A DNA stretch of 64,000 nt from Candidatus Woesearchaeota archaeon (lineage in GTDB: Archaea > Nanobdellota > Nanobdellia > SCGC-AAA011-G17 > UBA489). How positions within the stretch are numbered: the stretch's first letter is position 1; each line of letters opens with the position of its first letter. The notes under the pieces are model-generated. The model was not told the DNA's origin, made no database searches, and was given only the letters and a program-made list of their open reading frames with translations. Below, piece by piece: positions 54,075 to 63,133 of this stretch. The stretch lies in the NCBI GenBank assembly GCA_018302985.1, contig JAGVZA010000014.1, positions 7,184-71,183 on the forward strand. The letters run 5' to 3'. The translations under genes and the position numbers were made by a program.

Positions 54075-56297
54075 TTAAATTCTAGGTTTATATCTTTTTA
54101 TCGACAACGAATTCAACACAACTAATAAAGAACTCAAAGCCATAGCTCCAGCAGCAATGAGGGGTTGCAATAAAAATCCTGTAAAGGGATAAAGTATACC
54201 TGCGGCAACAGGAACACCAACAACAGTATAAAGAAGTGCTCCAGAAATATTTTGTTTAATTTTTTTTACTGTCTGCATGCTAAGATCAATCGCAATCACA
54301 ACATCACGTAAATCATTTTTAATCAAAAGAACTTGTCCTGTTTCTGTCATAAGGTCCATGCCTGTTCCCAAGACAATACCAACATCAGCTTGTTTAAGTG
54401 CAGCAGCATCAGTAATACCGTCTCCCACTAAAGCAACAACTCGTCCTTGTGCTTGTAAGGTTCTTATGTGCGCAGCTCTATCTTGAGGTAAAACATTCGC
54501 TATCACTTGAGTAATCTGTAAATCAGTTGCAGTCGCTTGTGCTGTACCTGTATGATCTCCCGTTATCAGAACAACTTGCTTGCCTAACCGTTGTAAAGCT
54601 TGTACTACAGATCGAGCATACGCATTCGGTGCATCTACAAAACCAAGAACTCCTACTGCTACAGTATTCACTCCAACAATAAGTAAAGTTTTGCCTGCAG
54701 ATTCCATCGATTGTAAGCGAGCTTCTAGAGGTGTAATGTCAATACTTTGTTCATGCATCAGCTGTCTATTACCTACGGCTACTTTTTTGCCTAAATATTT
54801 AGCAACAATACCTTTACCTGCGTGCATTTGAGAGGAATGAGAGTCTGGAATTGCAATATCATGTTGTTGTGCGTAGGTAAGAATCGCTTGTGCTAAAGGG
54901 TGTTTGGAACGTTTCTCTGCTAAGGCAGCAAATTTCAAAACAGTTTTTTCATCCCCTTGGAAAGCTATAATATCAGTGACTGTTGGTTTTCCCTGAGTTA
55001 AAGTGCCAGATTTATCGAAAATTACAGTGTCTATTTGTCTAAGAGCTTCTATAGTATTTCCACCTTTAAGTAAAATGCCATGTTGAGCAGCTTTGCCTGT
55101 AGCCACCATAACTGCTGTTGGTGTTGCTAAGGAGAGAGCAGAAGAGCCAGCAAGAAGTAAAAGCGTTACAAAAGAGAAACAGGCAAAAAAGAAAGCAGGC
55201 GAAGGTCCAAATAATAACCAAACAAGAAACGTAACAATGCTTAACATCAACAGAAGAGGCATCAAAATACGTACAAAATTATCTGCAAAGAGTTGTAAAG
55301 GTGTTTTATGACTTTGTGCTTCTCGAACAGAAGAAATCATGCGTGATAAAAGTGTATCTTTGCCAACAGCTGTAGCTTGAATATGGAAAGTATGTTCTTT
55401 ATTGATACTCCCTCCAACAACTTGCATGCCTTTGCTTTTCTCTACTAGACTGCTTGTTCCAATGACTTTACTTGCATCAACAAGAGAACTGCCTTGCATG
55501 ACTAAACCATCTACTGGTAGAGGTTGACCTGCTTTGACTAACAAGATATCTCCGACAACAACTTCAGTCAGAGGAACTTCAAGCTGCTTGCCATGACGAA
55601 GAACTGTTGCTAAAGGGGGTTGCAATTTCAGTAAGGCTCGTAAAGAATCAGAAGTATGACGTTGAACTACAGCTTCAAGATATTTACCAAAGAGTACTAG
55701 AGTAATAATAAGAGACACAATAACATAAGAAAGAGAATATGCACTTACAGAGGAAAAGAAGACAAGGGGAAAGAAAGTTGCTAGTAAGCTATAAAGAAAA
55801 AGAATACTTATTCCTAAAGCAACAAAAGTATTTTTATCTACCGTCTTTCTCTGTAATGAATACCATAATCCTTTGTAAAAATCTAAAGCAGCATAAAATT
55901 GTATTGGCAGAGTAAGAAGTAAGAGGATATAGGATGAGATTAAAAAAGTAGGAACAAAAGTAAAAAGCTCAGGAAAACTAAGGAGAAGAAGCGCAAGAGT
56001 GAAGAGTACCGCGATAACTAATCGCAGTCGTAAGCGATGTAACTGGCGTGTTTCTATAAGCCTAATATCATGGTAATTGTCTTGTGCATCATGGCTAAAA
56101 GCATGGTAACCTAAGTGCTGCACTACAGTTTGAAAATCTTGAAAAGAGGCTCGTCCATCATGGTCTACTACAGCTTGTTCTGTGCCATAGTTCACTAGAG
56201 CTTGCTTAACTCCTACCACTTTTTTCAATTCTTGTCCTAAAGGTCCAGTGCAAGCATCGCAATGCATGCCTTTGATAGTAAAGGTTGTTTTTGGCAT
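54075..56297 (-). CDS. CopA-like P1B-type ATPase with degenerate catalytic and metal-binding motifs
   Basis: HMA GMHCDAC, DKSGT and HP kept; CPC>GSS, TGE>IGT, GDGIND>GDGITD, YN>YT. Confidence 0.88.
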   Translation of the reverse strand: MPKTTFTIKGMHCDACTGPLGQELKKVVGVKQALVNYGTEQAVVDHDGRASFQDFQTVVQHLGYHAFSHDAQDNYHDIRLIETRQLHRLRLRLVIAVLFTLALLLLSFPELFTFVPTFLISSYILLLLTLPIQFYAALDFYKGLWYSLQRKTVDKNTFVALGISILFLYSLLATFFPLVFFSSVSAYSLSYVIVSLIITLVLFGKYLEAVVQRHTSDSLRALLKLQPPLATVLRHGKQLEVPLTEVVVGDILLVKAGQPLPVDGLVMQGSSLVDASKVIGTSSLVEKSKGMQVVGGSINKEHTFHIQATAVGKDTLLSRMISSVREAQSHKTPLQLFADNFVRILMPLLLMLSIVTFLVWLLFGPSPAFFFACFSFVTLLLLAGSSALSLATPTAVMVATGKAAQHGILLKGGNTIEALRQIDTVIFDKSGTLTQGKPTVTDIIAFQGDEKTVLKFAALAEKRSKHPLAQAILTYAQQHDIAIPDSHSSQMHAGKGIVAKYLGKKVAVGNRQLMHEQSIDITPLEARLQSMESAGKTLLIVGVNTVAVGVLGFVDAPNAYARSVVQALQRLGKQVVLITGDHTGTAQATATDLQITQVIANVLPQDRAAHIRTLQAQGRVVALVGDGITDAAALKQADVGIVLGTGMDLMTETGQVLLIKNDLRDVVIAIDLSMQTVKKIKQNISGALLYTVVGVPVAAGILYPFTGFLLQPLIAAGAMALSSLLVVLNSLSIKRYKPRI

Positions 56298-56371: not shown

Positions 56372-56611
56372 TTAGTCTAGTTTCTCGATAATAATAGCAA
56401 TAACAGGACAGACTTCTGCAGCCATTTTATTGACGTCTAAGTCTTTCTCATCAATAATAAGCTCCCATCTTTTCGTCTTTGCGTTAAAGGTGCCGCCAAT
56501 AAGGTCAACTTTCCCATCAGGATGTGTTTTATAGAATTTTTCTGCGACACCAGCACAAGCCAAGACTCCAATACAGAGTTCGCGATCGAAGCTGATTTTA
56601 TATTTAGCCAT
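56372..56611 (-). CDS. Single-cluster ferredoxin, probably [3Fe-4S]
   Basis: DRELCIGVLAC...AAEVCPV. Confidence 0.82.
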   Translation of the reverse strand: MAKYKISFDRELCIGVLACAGVAEKFYKTHPDGKVDLIGGTFNAKTKRWELIIDEKDLDVNKMAAEVCPVIAIIIEKLD

Positions 56612-56643
56612 AGAAAAAATGCTAGGAAAGACACTTATAAATC

Positions 56644-57588
56644 TTACGCACCAAGATAACGTGTATACAAAGCACGTGCTTCAGTCTCATTTTTTGCTAC
56701 AATCAACACTCTTCCATCTGGAAAAATAGTTAAAGGCCCATATTTGACACAAGTACCTAAGTTTTTTGCTCCTCGTAGACGTTGAACTAAAGAAGATAAA
56801 GAAACTGCATGACCTCGAATCTGATAATATGAAGATCCACAAAACTTTAACACTGGACTGATATACTTACCTGATAAATAATCATAGGTTCCTTTGCACA
56901 CAGGACAAGAAGTATTTTTTTTAACTGTGAGTTTTTCAAAACTAGGAGTCCATGCATTAATATGGAATAAGTCTGGAGAGACTTTCTTGCCTAAAAGTAA
57001 TTGTAAAGTAAAAGAGACTTGTAAGCTGGCAATAATATGAGTAATGCTATTGATAACACCGCTTGTATCACACGTTTCCAATCCACCTACAGGTTTGAAC
57101 AAACAACGAAAACATGCTTGCCCAGGTAGAAATGCTTTAACATAGCCTTCATCTCGAATTGCTGATCCATAGACCCAAAGGAGTTTGTGTTTTGTTGCAT
57201 ATTCATTGATGAGAAATCTGGTTTCCATATTATCTGTGCCATCAACAATAAGATCTCCTTGAAGCAAGTGTACATTTTCATGATACACATCAGTGACATG
57301 ACTAACAATCTTAATGCCAGAATTAATTGTTTTCAAGTGAGTCAATGCAGCAACAGCTTTGGGTTGTCCAACATCAGCTTCAGTATACAAACTCTGTCTT
57401 TGTAAATTATGTTCTTCCACATAGTCTCTATCAATTAAAGTAAGTTTACCGACACCCGCTCTGCACAGTAGATCAGCGGCTACACTGCCCAAAGCTCCAA
57501 CACCAACAATCACCACATGTTTTTTGCTTAGTTGAAGTTGTCCTTGTTTGCCTATGTTCTTATACAGTTCTTGACGTGCATATCTCAT
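56644..57588 (-). CDS. ThiF/MoeB/UbaA family E1-like adenylyltransferase
   Basis: RYARQ, GVGALG, DRDYVEEHNLQRQ, DGTDN, ACFRC, TCDTSG, CPVC. Confidence 0.92.
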   Translation of the reverse strand: MRYARQELYKNIGKQGQLQLSKKHVVIVGVGALGSVAADLLCRAGVGKLTLIDRDYVEEHNLQRQSLYTEADVGQPKAVAALTHLKTINSGIKIVSHVTDVYHENVHLLQGDLIVDGTDNMETRFLINEYATKHKLLWVYGSAIRDEGYVKAFLPGQACFRCLFKPVGGLETCDTSGVINSITHIIASLQVSFTLQLLLGKKVSPDLFHINAWTPSFEKLTVKKNTSCPVCKGTYDYLSGKYISPVLKFCGSSYYQIRGHAVSLSSLVQRLRGAKNLGTCVKYGPLTIFPDGRVLIVAKNETEARALYTRYLGA

Positions 57589-57666
57589 AATAACTACCAC
57601 TTAATGAGGATTTTTAAAGATTGCCTAAAGGAAATACTTTTAAATGAACTAAATCAATGAAAAAGT

Positions 57667-58168: not shown

Positions 58169-60724
58169 TTATGCTTTATAATCGCTCTTGATAAACAATT
58201 TAGAAAACTCTAAAACAATAAAGCATGCTAGAGCCATACCTATGCTTTGCGCCCAGTCAAAAAATGTTAAAGGCACTACTTTAAAGGCGACACCGATAGG
58301 AGTATAGAGTAAAACAATGTGCATGCCTATGGAAACTAACGCTGCTAGATGCAGCCATTTATTGGAAAATAAATTAGTAAATGGCTTGGAAGATTTACAA
58401 TTATAAGCACGTAAGATTTCGAAGAGAATTAAAGTGGTAAGTGCAATGCTCCTGACTTCAGCTAGATCTTGACCAGCTTCATATTCGATAATAAAGACTC
58501 CCAACACTAAAAGAGTTCCAATAATTGCAGTATAAACAATATTTTGTTTGAGTCCAGTAATAATATGTTCTTTAGGGCTTCTAGGTTTTCGTTTCATGAC
58601 ATCATCACTAGGAGCATCAACCGCTAATGCCAGTGCAGGCCAGCTGTCAGTCATTAAGTTCAACCATAAGATCTGTAAAGGAAGTAAAGGAAGTGGCATG
58701 CCAATGAGGAGAGCACCAACAATAATACCTACTTCAACAGCATTTGCACTCAAGAGATAGTTAACAAATTTCTTAATATTATCATAGACAACTCTTCCTT
58801 GCTCTACAGCAGAGACAATAGAAGAAAAATTATCATCAGTTAAAATCATGTCAGCGGCATCTCTGCTCACATCTGTTCCTTTCAAAGACATAGCAACGCC
58901 AATATCAGCATTCTTCAGCGCAGGAGCATCATTTAATCCGTCGCCAGTCATCGCAACTATGTCTCCATTAGCTTGTAAGGCTTTCAAAATTTTGACCTTA
59001 TGTGATGAAGAAGCACGTGCAAACATCGTATATTTTTTCACTAACTCTTGCATATCTGCTTCAGTTGCAGCTTCTAATTCTGCTCCACTTAGAACTTGTC
59101 CTTCAAAACCAATTTGCTTGCCTATAGCTTCTGCAGTTAAGGGGTGATCTCCAGTAATCATGACAGCGCGAATACCTGCTTGTTTACACAAGGCCATAGC
59201 TTCTCTGACACCTTCTTTTGGAGGATCAATCATACCCATTAAACCAACAAAATGCATGTCTTCATCTTGTTTGATGGCCATGGCAAGAACACGTAAAGCG
59301 CTTTGTGCTAGTAACTCATTAGTGCTTAAGATTTTTACTCTATCTCTATCAATCAAGCGTCGTTTTTTTCCATCAATGATAATGCTAGTGCACATAGCAA
59401 GAATAACTTCAGGTGCTCCTTTGTAAAATGTAAACCCTTTGTGAAGAGTTGCCATATATTTCTTTTCAGCTTCAAAAGGAATCTCTCCAGTTCTTTCTAT
59501 TTTTTCATGAATGCCGCCCTTTTTAGCGGTATAAATCAAAGCCATCTCCGTAGGATCTCCAACAGTGTCAGTCGCGTTGTTGCAGGAAGCAGCAATATTC
59601 AGAAGTAATTTGAAATCTTTAGCTTCAACTTCCTTGCCTTGAATAGTAAAAGATCCTTCAGTGCTATATCCATAGCCTCCAACATCAATCAATTGATTAT
59701 TAACATACATTTTTTTTACAGTCATTTCGTTTTTAGTCAAGGTGCCGGTTTTATCAGAACAAATAACAGTAATGCTACCTAAAGTCTCAATGCTCTTGAG
59801 TCGTTTGACCAGAACTTTTCTTTTGATCATATATTGAACACTTAAGGAAAGACAAATAGTGACTACTGCTGGTAATCCTTCAGGCACAGCAGCAACAGCT
59901 AGACTAATTGCAGTCAATAAAGTTTCAAAGAATTCCATGCCGCGTAATAATCCAAATAAAAATATAAATGTACAAATACCAATCACTAAAAATCCCAAAA
60001 AACGTCCTAGTTGCTTTAATTTCTTTTGCAGAGGAGTAGTATGAGTTCCAACTTCTTGAACCATTTTGGCAATTTTTCCTAATTCTGTTTTCATGCCAGT
60101 TTCAACTACAATGCCTTTGCCAGTCCCGCGAACAACAATAGTACTGGAATAGAGCATATTGATTCTTTCAGCTAAATTAACCAGTCTAGGCAAAGTTTTG
60201 ACAAATTTGCTGCACGGAAGACTTTCTCCAGTTAATGCAGCTTCATTGGTTTGCAAATTATTAGCGTCAAAAATACGAATGTCTGCTGGAACTTTATCCC
60301 CAGCTTCAACAAGCACAACATCACCTGGAATTAATTCTGTAGAAGGAATCTCTTTGACAACACCATCACGTAGAACTTTAGCTTTTAATACAGTTAATTG
60401 TTGTAAGAGTTGGACAGCGCGTTCTGCTTTGTATTCTTGAAAAAATCCCAATAAGGCATTAAAGAAAAGAATTGCTAAAATGACATACGCATCTAAATAT
60501 TCTCCTAAGAGAAAAGAAACAATGGTAGCAAAAAGAAGAATATAAACAACAGTTTCCCTAAATTGCCTGAGAAAAATCTTCCAAGGAGGATCTCGGCGTT
60601 CTAGTTTAAGTTTGTTTTCACCATACTCAAGAAGACGTCTTCGTGCTTCTACATCGCTTAATCCATTAGTAGAACTCTGTTTGTCCCTAAGCACCTCTTG
60701 TACATCTTGACTATGATAAGTCAT
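58169..60724 (-). CDS. P2A-type (Ca2+/cation) transporting ATPase
   Basis: LTGES, PEGLP, DKTGTLT, KGAPE, TGD, GDGLNDAP, WLNLMTD. Confidence 0.93.
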   Translation of the reverse strand: MTYHSQDVQEVLRDKQSSTNGLSDVEARRRLLEYGENKLKLERRDPPWKIFLRQFRETVVYILLFATIVSFLLGEYLDAYVILAILFFNALLGFFQEYKAERAVQLLQQLTVLKAKVLRDGVVKEIPSTELIPGDVVLVEAGDKVPADIRIFDANNLQTNEAALTGESLPCSKFVKTLPRLVNLAERINMLYSSTIVVRGTGKGIVVETGMKTELGKIAKMVQEVGTHTTPLQKKLKQLGRFLGFLVIGICTFIFLFGLLRGMEFFETLLTAISLAVAAVPEGLPAVVTICLSLSVQYMIKRKVLVKRLKSIETLGSITVICSDKTGTLTKNEMTVKKMYVNNQLIDVGGYGYSTEGSFTIQGKEVEAKDFKLLLNIAASCNNATDTVGDPTEMALIYTAKKGGIHEKIERTGEIPFEAEKKYMATLHKGFTFYKGAPEVILAMCTSIIIDGKKRRLIDRDRVKILSTNELLAQSALRVLAMAIKQDEDMHFVGLMGMIDPPKEGVREAMALCKQAGIRAVMITGDHPLTAEAIGKQIGFEGQVLSGAELEAATEADMQELVKKYTMFARASSSHKVKILKALQANGDIVAMTGDGLNDAPALKNADIGVAMSLKGTDVSRDAADMILTDDNFSSIVSAVEQGRVVYDNIKKFVNYLLSANAVEVGIIVGALLIGMPLPLLPLQILWLNLMTDSWPALALAVDAPSDDVMKRKPRSPKEHIITGLKQNIVYTAIIGTLLVLGVFIIEYEAGQDLAEVRSIALTTLILFEILRAYNCKSSKPFTNLFSNKWLHLAALVSIGMHIVLLYTPIGVAFKVVPLTFFDWAQSIGMALACFIVLEFSKLFIKSDYKA

Positions 60725-60800: not shown

Positions 60801-61841
60801 TTACAAAGCTATTATTTCAGCTAATTTTCTTTTTTTTAGGCTTCCTCTTGCTCGATCAGGATAATTTTTAAAGAACATATCATAACATCCACTAACAAAC
60901 CCATCATGGCTTATTCTAACGTCTCTAATAAGAGTTCTAGGTGCAGGAATATAACTTATGTAGATGTTTCCAAACCTAGTAAAGATAGTTGCATAATCAT
61001 CTATCATTAATTTTCCTAACTCTATTATTCCTCTTTCTACAAGTAAATCCATTAATGGTTTTTGTGTATCATAATCTACTTTTAATAAGAGTTGATCTTG
61101 ACTCCCCAGCCAAGCATTTGCTTCAGTTTTTAATCTTTCATAGGTATCTGTTACTTGTTCTTTAGTTATTCCAATGTCTTTTCCATTTTGGTTTATACTT
61201 ACTACATACGGAGAAACCATGAATCTTTTTACTCCTCTTTCTTGTAATTCTCCAATCATTTTTTTGATTAGAGAAACATCATTGTTTGCGCCCATTAAAG
61301 TAAAGCTGATGAATAATCTATCTGAGAAACTAGAGCCTTGACAGAGTATCTTCTCAATTGCAGATAGAGATTTGTCATAATTTCCAAAACCTCTAACAGA
61401 ATCATGAATCTCTCTTGTTCCATCTATGCTAATGTCTAAATATGTTGGATCAGCCTCAATTAACTGTTTTATTCTTTCATCGTCAAATGAAGTAGCATTT
61501 GTAACAAGACCATATCTTATTCTTGGATTTTCCTGCTTCTTTTGCTTTAAAAAATTTAAAAGTTGAACTGATTTATTCCATGCAAGAAGTGGTTCTTTTC
61601 CAACATTTCCAAAAGTTAAGGCGCCCAACTCCAAAGCTTGATTAAATATATTTTGCCATTCTTCAACTGATAAGGCATTTTTAGGTTCTTCATAACCAAC
61701 ATAACAATGTCTACAGCTTAAATTACAAACGTTATTAACAAAATAAGATATCTCTAATGGTCCTCTTATAAAATCTTGCCTATGCAATGTAGAAGACTTA
61801 ACATTTATACCCCCATTACTCCCAGAAAATCCTAATGCCAT
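60801..61841 (-). CDS. Radical SAM enzyme (SPASM/twitch-type core, truncated auxiliary domain)
   Basis: CNLSCRHC, GKEPLL, VTNA, ISIDG...HD.VRG; C-terminal ISHDGFVSGC with one Cys. Confidence 0.9.
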   Translation of the reverse strand: MALGFSGSNGGINVKSSTLHRQDFIRGPLEISYFVNNVCNLSCRHCYVGYEEPKNALSVEEWQNIFNQALELGALTFGNVGKEPLLAWNKSVQLLNFLKQKKQENPRIRYGLVTNATSFDDERIKQLIEADPTYLDISIDGTREIHDSVRGFGNYDKSLSAIEKILCQGSSFSDRLFISFTLMGANNDVSLIKKMIGELQERGVKRFMVSPYVVSINQNGKDIGITKEQVTDTYERLKTEANAWLGSQDQLLLKVDYDTQKPLMDLLVERGIIELGKLMIDDYATIFTRFGNIYISYIPAPRTLIRDVRISHDGFVSGCYDMFFKNYPDRARGSLKKRKLAEIIAL

Positions 61842-61843
61842 GG

Positions 61844-62062
61844 TTAATCTTCAATCTTTTCAGCTAGTCCACTCTCTCTTTTCAGATTTCTGTCTAAGTC
61901 TTCAAGAGCAGTTATAAGTTTTTGATATAGAGGTTTAACTTCTTGAGGGGCTATATCTTTAAGAGTCCGATATTTTTGTAAACCTGCTGCTATATCTGCA
62001 AGTTCAAATCTTCTGTACGCATCTGCAATTCCACCATTACTTCCTGAAATGCCTATTGCCAT
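61844..62062 (-). CDS. Small protein sharing its N-terminal motif with the adjacent radical SAM enzyme
   Basis: 72 aa; MAIGISGSNGGI vs MALGFSGSNGGI; stop 2 nt before the enzyme start. Confidence 0.8.
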   Translation of the reverse strand: MAIGISGSNGGIADAYRRFELADIAAGLQKYRTLKDIAPQEVKPLYQKLITALEDLDRNLKRESGLAEKIED

Positions 62063-62185
62063 AATTTATATAAGTATTAGTTAAATATTAAAATTCCTAT
62101 TGTATTTTCCTAAAAAAATAAAGATATTAAAGATTAAATTTAGTATAATAGAAACATTTATAAATTTAATGCGCACTGTTTAAAT

Positions 62186-63133
62186 ATGAAATTAGACACT
62201 ATAGACAAGAAACTCTTAACCTATCTTTATCATAATTACCGTTCTCCTTTAACAAAGATAGGAAATGAATGTAGAATCTCAAGGGACCAAGTTGAATACA
62301 GATTAGAAAAGTTTGAGAAATCAGGCTTAATAAAGAAATATCTTACAGTTTTTAACTATGCTTTACTAGGATTTAATGACTTATTTATTGTATATATGAA
62401 GACTAAAAATAAAGAAAAGGTAAAATTATCATTGCAAGCCATCAAAAATACCCTTTCGGTTGGAGATGTTGTTTCAAGTTTTGATATTTTTGTTAATTTT
62501 ATTTGTGAAAATAAGAATGAATTTGACTCGATATTTAGTTCATTTTTAGAAAAACATAAAGAGGAAATTCAAAGTTATGAGATATTTAATACAACTTATG
62601 CAGAGTTTTTTCCTCTAAAAGCATTTGGAAATCAAAAAAATGAAATTTCCTATAAGGCAGTAGAGCCAAAGCAAAAAATAGATCTGGATAAAAAAGAAAT
62701 CGATATTCTTAAAGAACTGGAAAAAAATGGAAGGTCTAAAATTATAGATATTGCTTCCAAAATAGGAATTTCAGGAGAATTAGCTTTGTATAAACTAAAG
62801 CAATTAAGAAAAAAAGAAGTAATCCTTGGAAATAGAATACAATTTGATATGCAAAAGCTAGGTTTTTACTTCTCAATTTTGAGATTAAAAGTAAAGAATT
62901 TAGACCAAATCTTAAAGGAAAAAATAAGACATTTTTGTAAAACTAAAAAATATACAAATGCTTTGATTTTTAGTATTTCAGACTATAATGTATTAATTCA
63001 GTTATTCTACCAGAATGAAGATGAATTAAGAAAGGCAATAAACGAATTAAATGAAGAGTTTAGAGAGTATATAACTCAAGATTCTTTGATATTGATTGAA
63101 AATGAAATGACTGCTAGGACAATTCCGTTTTAA
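62186..63133 (+). CDS. Tandem (double) Lrp/AsnC family regulator
   Basis: LDTIDKKLL...NYRSPL and LDKKEIDIL...NGRSKI units; divergent from the small protein/rSAM pair. Confidence 0.88.
   Translation: MKLDTIDKKLLTYLYHNYRSPLTKIGNECRISRDQVEYRLEKFEKSGLIKKYLTVFNYALLGFNDLFIVYMKTKNKEKVKLSLQAIKNTLSVGDVVSSFDIFVNFICENKNEFDSIFSSFLEKHKEEIQSYEIFNTTYAEFFPLKAFGNQKNEISYKAVEPKQKIDLDKKEIDILKELEKNGRSKIIDIASKIGISGELALYKLKQLRKKEVILGNRIQFDMQKLGFYFSILRLKVKNLDQILKEKIRHFCKTKKYTNALIFSISDYNVLIQLFYQNEDELRKAINELNEEFREYITQDSLILIENEMTARTIPF

Follow-up and report, generated by a model that had tools for sequence, protein, structure and literature searches.

A small gene and a radical SAM gene with a common start

The window analyzed here, a 64,000-nucleotide stretch of contig JAGVZA010000014.1 from a "Candidatus Woesearchaeota" archaeon, contains two adjacent reverse-strand genes whose products begin with nearly the same 12 residues, referred to below as the arm. 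The first gene encodes a 72-amino-acid protein (61844-62062, -) that starts MAIGISGSNGGI (arm codons at 62027-62062, -). The second, separated from it by only 2 nucleotides (TAA CC ATG), encodes a 346-amino-acid radical S-adenosylmethionine (SAM) enzyme (60801-61841, -) that starts MALGFSGSNGGI (arm codons at 61806-61841, -). Ten of the 12 residues are identical, and at six of these ten (G4, S6, G7, G10, G11, and I12) the codons differ synonymously; a re-reading of the open reading frames (ORFs) showed that the shared residues and codons listed in the initial annotation of this DNA were exact. At the DNA level, the two arm copies form a 42-nucleotide direct repeat of 76% identity that is restricted to the motif. 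When the entire 1.04-Mb genome assembly was scanned in six frames, the motif was returned at these two N-termini only, and chance is therefore excluded as the origin of the match. The claim that similarity stops after residue 12 was essentially correct: with the motif removed, hhalign found a weak same-register match at residues ~17 to 24 (R-[FI]-x-x-x-D-[ILV]; E = 0.027). A homology between the tail of the small protein and the linker of the enzyme was considered and dropped, the same-register signal being weak only.

The 72-amino-acid protein was modeled by AlphaFold2 as two helices spanning residues 10 to 37 and 43 to 71, with a predicted local distance difference test score (pLDDT) of 90 to 95 in the middle and below 50 for residues 1 to 9. 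This model, in which a disordered N-terminal arm leads into a helical hairpin, bears out the helical C-terminal part that had been anticipated for the protein. The arm is predicted to be disordered on both proteins. A profile built from four of the small proteins retrieved 24 clusters among 1.84 billion representative proteins, which puts the size of this small family at about 24 clusters (50% identity). The short hits (31 to 106 amino acids) had the arm, intact or in variant form, at their N-terminus or close to it, and many had Y16, D23, G27, K30, Y31, and L56 in common; four hits of about 900 to 1,900 amino acids look spurious. The top fold matches of the hairpin (61850-62035, -) were to the encapsulated ferritins EncB, EncC, and Rru_A0973, with template modeling (TM) scores of up to 0.8 but nonsignificant E values (>0.4). 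The idea suggested by these matches and by the glycine-rich arm, namely, that the arm is an encapsulin cargo tag, was rejected: no encapsulin gene is present in the genome, and the ferritin ExxH residues are absent.

Upstream of the small gene lies a 123-nucleotide, AT-rich divergent intergenic region (62063-62185) that presumably holds the promoters and an operator. It is followed by a gene for a 315-amino-acid tandem Lrp/AsnC-type protein (62186-63133, +) with two units, each of a helix-turn-helix (HTH) and an effector domain; Pfam HTH_24 and HTH_AsnC-type models each matched in two stretches. The best PDB matches of this protein were the Lrp-type regulators FL11/PH1519 and LrpA.

An apparently undescribed relative of peptide maturases

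Membership of the enzyme in the radical SAM superfamily is clear from its match to PF04055 (67.1 bits versus a cutoff of 29.5 bits) and from its C39-x3-C43-x2-C46 motif (CNLSCRHC; 61704-61727, -), which would bind the [4Fe-4S] cluster and is invariant in an alignment of 117 homologues. Apart from these three cysteines, the only conserved one is Cys319 (60885-60887, -), located in a remnant of the SPASM beta-hairpin (DGxVxxC...GN[VI]; here ISHDGFVSGC...GN[VI]) and also kept in a sister clade of arm-less enzymes that is described below. Conservation of only four cysteines makes an auxiliary SPASM/twitch cluster impossible: the at least three extra cysteines that define that class were not found, and the Pfam SPASM model scored 16.5 bits, under its cutoff of 21.5 bits. 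No RiPP recognition element (RRE; RiPP, ribosomally synthesized and posttranslationally modified peptide) or PqqD-like domain was found with Pfam or NCBIfam, and the first barrel strand (beta-1) begins after only 28 residues; the enzyme thus has no RRE domain.

The AlphaFold model of the enzyme was of high quality overall (pLDDT, 91.7), with values below 50 for arm residues 1 to 8. Foldseek placed CteB, SuiB, SkfB, and ChlB nearest, followed by viperin-like enzymes and anSME; matches to CteB, SuiB, SkfB, and anSME had E values of 1e-13 to 1e-8 and TM scores of 0.6 to 0.7, as expected of a SPASM/twitch-like fold. A profile search of PDB sequences agreed (CteB, 3.9e-19; SkfB, 1e-14). The initial annotation had assigned the enzyme a SPASM/twitch-type core, and this holds insofar as its nearest structural relatives modify peptides, but not for the auxiliary cluster that the name implies. 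Among NCBIfam models, 74 were touched, ScfB, CcpM, NirJ, and AhbC included, and all scored far below their cutoffs; the best matches were PapB (62 bits versus 340 bits) and ScfB-related models.

Other assignments were tried and rejected. A prokaryotic viperin (pVip) is disfavored because the PADLOC match (44.8 bits) covers the generic radical SAM core only and because viperin structures rank under peptide maturases. A viral or defense origin fared no better, as no family member was found on viral contigs (best match, 26% identity) and the viperin match is weak and generic. A role in siroheme decarboxylation or in an alternative heme or heme d1 pathway was dismissed on the scores of AhbA (32.6 bits versus 140 bits) and AhbC (48.6 bits versus 650 bits), and the idea that the Lrp-like protein is the corresponding AhbA/B or NirDL partner was dismissed because its best PDB matches are DNA-binding regulators. 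The family is unnamed in Pfam, NCBIfam, and PADLOC and is apparently undescribed; a literature search gave no match to the motif strings and nothing on this family in work on RiPPs, DPANN archaea, or SIR2 proteins.

The arm as a hallmark of the enzyme family

More than 200 full-length homologues of the enzyme were present in the database. Archaeal ones belonged to DPANN lineages ("Woesearchaeota," "Nanoarchaeota," "Pacearchaeota," "Aenigmatarchaeota," and "Nanohalarchaeota"), and bacterial ones to Bacteroidales, Ignavibacteriales, Brocadia, Sulfuritalea, Methyloglobulus, Firestonebacteria, and Pacebacteria. The family is nonetheless rare, being found in 2 of 401 genomes of the phylum and in 1 of 401 genomes of the order of genome G207. 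Nearly all homologues start with the arm, with the consensus MA[ILV]G[FWLI]SGSNGG[ITV]: it was recognizable in 113 of the 117 aligned homologues, 97 of which had SGSNGG exactly. G7 is invariant, and M1, A2, G4, S6, S8, N9, G10, and G11 are each conserved at 90% or above, a level equal to that of the best-conserved parts of the enzyme, although overall identity among the aligned homologues is 38 to 76%. Homologous loci thus do not refute the idea put forward in the initial annotation: the arm is general among the enzymes, and arm-bearing mini-genes recur upstream.

Codon usage was compared across 44 nonredundant arm copies. All four glycine codons occurred at both G7 and G10, and Ser8 was encoded by AGY as well as TCN codons, which are two mutations apart. 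Such free synonymous usage indicates that the arm is translated and that selection acts on the peptide, as had been argued from the two copies in the window. Several enzymes and small proteins (P0052, P0083, P0085, P0097, L027, L017, P0140, and L097) carried in-frame tandem arms, each with its own Met-Ala.

Position 9 of the arm is Asn in the main family, Lys in the sister clade (SGSKGG), and Met in L012 (KGSMGG). The split arms of L033 read SGSGGG, as does the arm fused to L035, the nearest enzyme to L033 in the tree. On the alignments and tree, arm variants track the lineage of the enzyme.

Fused, split, and arm-less forms

The genomic context of the enzyme was surveyed at 35 loci with readable context (L038, on a 1.6-kb contig, was too short and was left out), and an arm was present at all 35. 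Three types of context were distinguished. Archaeal-type loci have a divergent tandem Lrp/AsnC gene, then zero to two small arm-bearing genes spaced 0 to 2 nucleotides apart, and then the radical SAM gene. Bacterial-type loci, of which there are about 18 in several phyla, encode an OppD-like ATPase, an SBP_bac_5 binding protein, two permeases, and a SIR2_2 protein, with the radical SAM gene last; these have no small gene, and their arm is always fused. Examples of the six-gene bacterial operon are found at L003 (811-7056) and L013 (2690-9089) and likewise at L009, L010, L022, L023, L028, L031, and L035; at L037, SIR2_2 is replaced by two other proteins (396 and 375 amino acids), one with a P-loop. 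The third type comprises L041, which is bacterial as judged from its bacterial-type S15 gene, and the similar L024, which was grouped with it by resemblance; both have a divergent TrmB-like HTH gene, and L041 also has a 59-amino-acid arm-bearing ORF. The sole constant across these contexts is the enzyme together with at least one arm.

Classified by where the arm resides, the loci were fused only (L001 and 17 bacterial-type loci), fused plus split (the window, L004, L007, L015 to L018, L027, L034, and L041), or split only (L008, L020, and L033, plus the arm-less sister clade of L012 and L097 to L099). Loci with small ORFs had one to three arm-bearing mini-ORFs each, i.e., the gene-encoded peptide that is looked for in a RiPP system. 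At the split-only loci of the main family, the enzyme arm had decayed by three different routes, namely, substitutions at L008 (MASGILGSDRS), deletion at L020 (MALGLSGQVDLV), and complete loss at L033, and in all three cases one or two small proteins with intact arms were encoded directly upstream. At L001, the closest well-assembled relative of the window (74% identity), it is the small gene that was lost, with the fused arm intact. In a maximum-likelihood tree, the three arm losses fell on separate branches, and all archaeal-type loci but one grouped in a single clade with support, where the small gene seems to be ancestral. L033 (2755-4360) combines an arm-less enzyme with an archaeal-type cassette (an Lrp-like gene and two small proteins), yet its enzyme pairs with that of bacterial-type L035 with 100/100 support, which suggests that the enzyme gene has been exchanged between cassette types.

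The enzymes of the sister clade share 32 to 36% identity with the main family and lack the arm throughout. One to three peptides of 29 to 62 amino acids are encoded upstream of them instead, starting MAIG[ILF]SGSKGGI or, at L012, MAG[LC]KGSMGGF (L012, 2735-2918, -; L097, 2744-3050; L098, 1341-1590; L099, 1352-1498). These peptides also share a second helix motif, [YF]-[VI]-[ED]-[LV]-F. Two neighborhoods in this clade have additional genes: L097 has genes for a MacB/FtsX-type ATP-binding cassette (ABC) exporter, convergent and downstream, and L099 (139-1144) has an NrdD fragment and an NrdG-like activase just upstream of the peptide and radical SAM genes, a single case and probably a coincidence.

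Taken over all loci, arm-less or decayed enzymes were accompanied by arm-bearing mini-genes in 7 of 7 cases, and none of the 18 loci without mini-genes had an arm-less enzyme (Fisher p = 0.003, uncorrected for phylogeny; p = 0.06 within the main family). The initial annotation had regarded the enzyme as carrying a copy of its own substrate. The distribution of sequences corrects this view: the fused arm is not a local copy but an ancient, family-wide feature, and the small gene is an add-on in archaea and in a few reduced-genome bacteria.

Other features of the region

The Lrp-like gene adjoins the radical SAM gene in archaeal-type loci and is thus a conserved neighbor of the cassette, and its divergent orientation is repeated in the archaeal loci with available upstream sequence, except at L012, where it is convergent. 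At least four tandem paralogues of the Lrp/AsnC protein of the window (62186-63133, +) are encoded elsewhere in the 1-Mb genome, on contigs C20, C10, C5, and C17. At L015, L027, and L033, the cassette-linked Lrp-like copy resembles that of the window more strongly than the radical SAM enzyme does.

Two P-type ATPases flank the region. One (54075-56297, -; 740 amino acids) is CopA-like; the other (58169-60724, -; 851 amino acids) ends 77 nucleotides downstream of the radical SAM gene and resembles Ca/Mg-type pumps. The latter is not a conserved neighbor across related loci. Between them, a ThiF/MoeB/E1-like protein (318 amino acids) is encoded beside a 79-amino-acid multi-Cys ORF that looks ferredoxin-like (56372-57600, -), for which no link to the cassette was found. 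An RNA element was also considered and rejected, as Rfam gave no match except one subthreshold hit to a small nucleolar RNA.

The arm as a candidate substrate of the enzyme

With moderate confidence, we read the arm as a flexible peptide substrate of the radical SAM enzyme, supplied either in cis, by fusion, or in trans, by the small proteins encoded immediately upstream, which are probably translationally coupled to the enzyme. This reading draws on the interchange of cis and trans arms, the lineage-specific variants, the multiple copies, the predicted disorder, and the kinship of the enzyme with peptide maturases. Moreover, across the archaeal, bacterial, and reduced-genome bacterial contexts, no component but the enzyme is shared, and the enzyme should therefore be the conserved partner of the arm. 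Tandem arms and multiple mini-genes recur in the family and resemble multicore precursors.

In the window, the enzyme would act on two N-termini, its own and that of the 72-amino-acid hairpin protein, and the segment after the arm (residues ~16 to 24; for the small protein, its helical hairpin) would serve as a docking follower. Cleavage of SAM would yield a 5'-deoxyadenosyl radical that abstracts a hydrogen atom within the invariant G7-S8 core, this pair being the most likely target of the chemistry, and the single invariant Cys319 might act as a hydrogen atom donor or relay. The product would most likely stay on the protein, as a modified N-terminus or a protein-derived cofactor, and not be released, since neither a protease nor an exporter is conserved alongside the cassette and since bacteria have the fused arm only.

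Several observations weigh against a substrate role. The cores of RiPPs are usually variable, and the arm is near-invariant. No RRE was found, neither a protease nor an exporter is conserved in the locus neighborhoods, and the arm, which is of low confidence in the AlphaFold model of the enzyme, is not placed in the active site there. Fusion would also come at a high cost, since a substrate fused to the enzyme allows each molecule a single turnover, and the bacterial operon with its Opp-like importer and SIR2_2 protein hints at an imported substrate and not at self-modification. The complementarity between enzyme arms and mini-genes, finally, reflects few independent events.

That near-invariance is typical of leaders and recognition sequences and not of cores, and it raises the alternative that the arm is a leader-like recognition handle that binds the enzyme so as to activate or position it. 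The residues that are modified would then lie elsewhere, in the follower of the small protein or in another substrate. A fused arm would make the enzyme constitutively "leader bound." An enzyme without an RRE needs some other mode of recognition, and the followers are conserved too: the main clade keeps Y16, D23, G27, K30, and Y31, and the sister clade keeps [YF]-[VI]-[ED]-[LV]-F-x-x-L. We nevertheless consider such a handle unlikely: in bacteria, only the enzyme itself follows the arm and no core is obvious, the arm stays constant while the followers differ completely between clades, and tandem arms with almost no residues between them would be purposeless.

The hint of an imported substrate would be accommodated if the arm is a catalytic or regulatory part of the enzyme (a lid, an autoinhibitory pseudosubstrate, or a radical relay) and the true substrate is another molecule, such as an Opp-imported peptide in bacteria, with the small proteins supplying the arm element in trans or competing for it. 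The conservation of the six-gene operon at about 18 loci in several phyla fits such a role, as do the invariance of both Gly7 and Cys319 and the gene spacing of 0 to 2 nucleotides, which suggests near-stoichiometric coexpression of small protein and enzyme. Archaeal loci, however, have neither an importer nor another candidate source of substrate, a substrate accounts better than a single structural element for tandem arms and for loci with as many as three arm-bearing peptides, and a part of the catalytic machinery is not readily reconciled with predicted disorder. We regard this explanation, too, as doubtful.

We judge a further possibility quite improbable. The arm may be a built-in, replaceable carrier of a cofactor: a single use of SAM to take a hydrogen atom from Gly7 (or Ser8) would generate, on the N-terminus of the enzyme itself, a stable glycyl radical or another protein-derived cofactor that, together with Cys319, would support multiple turnovers on a separate substrate, and the small proteins would be spare parts provided in trans, like GrcA/YfiD. 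If true, this would amount to a minimal radical enzyme that activates itself, a single protein of 346 residues combining the roles of activase, radical carrier, and catalyst.

It is very unlikely, in our estimation, that the two N-termini instead bind a common third partner (for example, the tandem Lrp-like protein, a protease, or some targeting compartment), the arm being left untouched by the enzyme. The tandem Lrp/AsnC protein is a conserved archaeal neighbor whose copies at some loci match that of the window more strongly than the enzymes do, and winged-helix domains bind peptides in other systems, the RRE/PqqD domains being the precedent. But archaeal and bacterial contexts share the same arm and no third gene, the Lrp-like protein has genomic paralogues and best matches ordinary DNA-binding regulators, the genome has no encapsulin, and the arm is found with this radical SAM enzyme only. 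Recent DNA duplication, gene conversion, or an annotation artifact, for which the 42-nucleotide direct repeat might speak, has a negligible chance of being right, since that repeat is only 76% identical, its differences falling mainly at synonymous sites, and since the arrangement persists across phyla while synonymous positions vary freely; together, the codon table and this cross-phylum conservation rule out both chance and recent duplication.

If the arm is indeed handled by the enzyme, the combination of an invariant Gly/Ser/Asn arm with a cluster-poor, RRE-less relative of peptide maturases would represent a new kind of substrate recognition, and it could also represent a new posttranslational modification or protein-derived cofactor. 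The enzyme appears to carry its substrate or cofactor within its own first 12 residues. These sequences would define a large radical SAM family, sparsely distributed yet of wide phylogenetic range and retained even in 1-Mb DPANN genomes, and its natural fused, split, and arm-less variants amount to a ready-made experimental design.

Comparison with known systems

The closest relatives by PDB, fold, and NCBIfam matches are the peptide-modifying SPASM/twitch maturases (CteB for SCIFF, SkfB, SuiB for streptide, ChlB, anSME, and PapB). As in those systems, a partner peptide is encoded directly upstream, and the SPASM beta-hairpin survives as a remnant. The enzyme described here differs in having no N-terminal RRE and no auxiliary-cluster cysteines (Cys319 only), in scoring far below the family cutoffs, and in that its candidate substrate is an invariant N-terminal arm that is usually fused to the enzyme.

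Precursors of the bottromycin type have an N-terminal core followed by a C-terminal follower peptide. The small proteins are similar in that there is no leader and the candidate core runs from Met1-Ala2 into a helical, recognition-like segment; unlike bottromycin loci, these have no YcaO, methyltransferase, or protease genes, and the core is invariant and also fused to the enzyme.

In glycyl-radical enzymes (GREs) and their activases, a radical SAM enzyme acts on a glycine in a flexible protein loop, and GrcA/YfiD is a small spare-part protein. There, as may be the case here, a small separate protein can carry the same glycine element, and the present family likewise has one invariant Gly and one invariant Cys. 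The RVxG[FWY] fingerprint of GREs is absent, however: the arm (A-[ILV]-G-[FW]-S-G-S) has no Arg, and the G4 that lies beside an aromatic residue is not invariant. There is also no GRE barrel, and the element is N-terminal.

Borosins occur as fused (OphMA-type) and split (SonM/SonA-type) enzyme-precursor pairs (bioRxiv 10.1101/2021.12.24.474128; PMC8429565). The 35-locus census revealed the same arrangement, with one peptide fused in some members and encoded by a separate small gene in others, and tandem cores are a further likeness. The analogy is one of architecture only, since borosin enzymes are SAM-dependent alpha-N-methyltransferases with a C-terminal core, whereas here a radical SAM TIM barrel bears its arm at the extreme N-terminus. 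Rather than a member of any of the systems compared, the cassette is apparently, as far as its sequences indicate, an undescribed variant of the theme of a radical SAM enzyme paired with a peptide.

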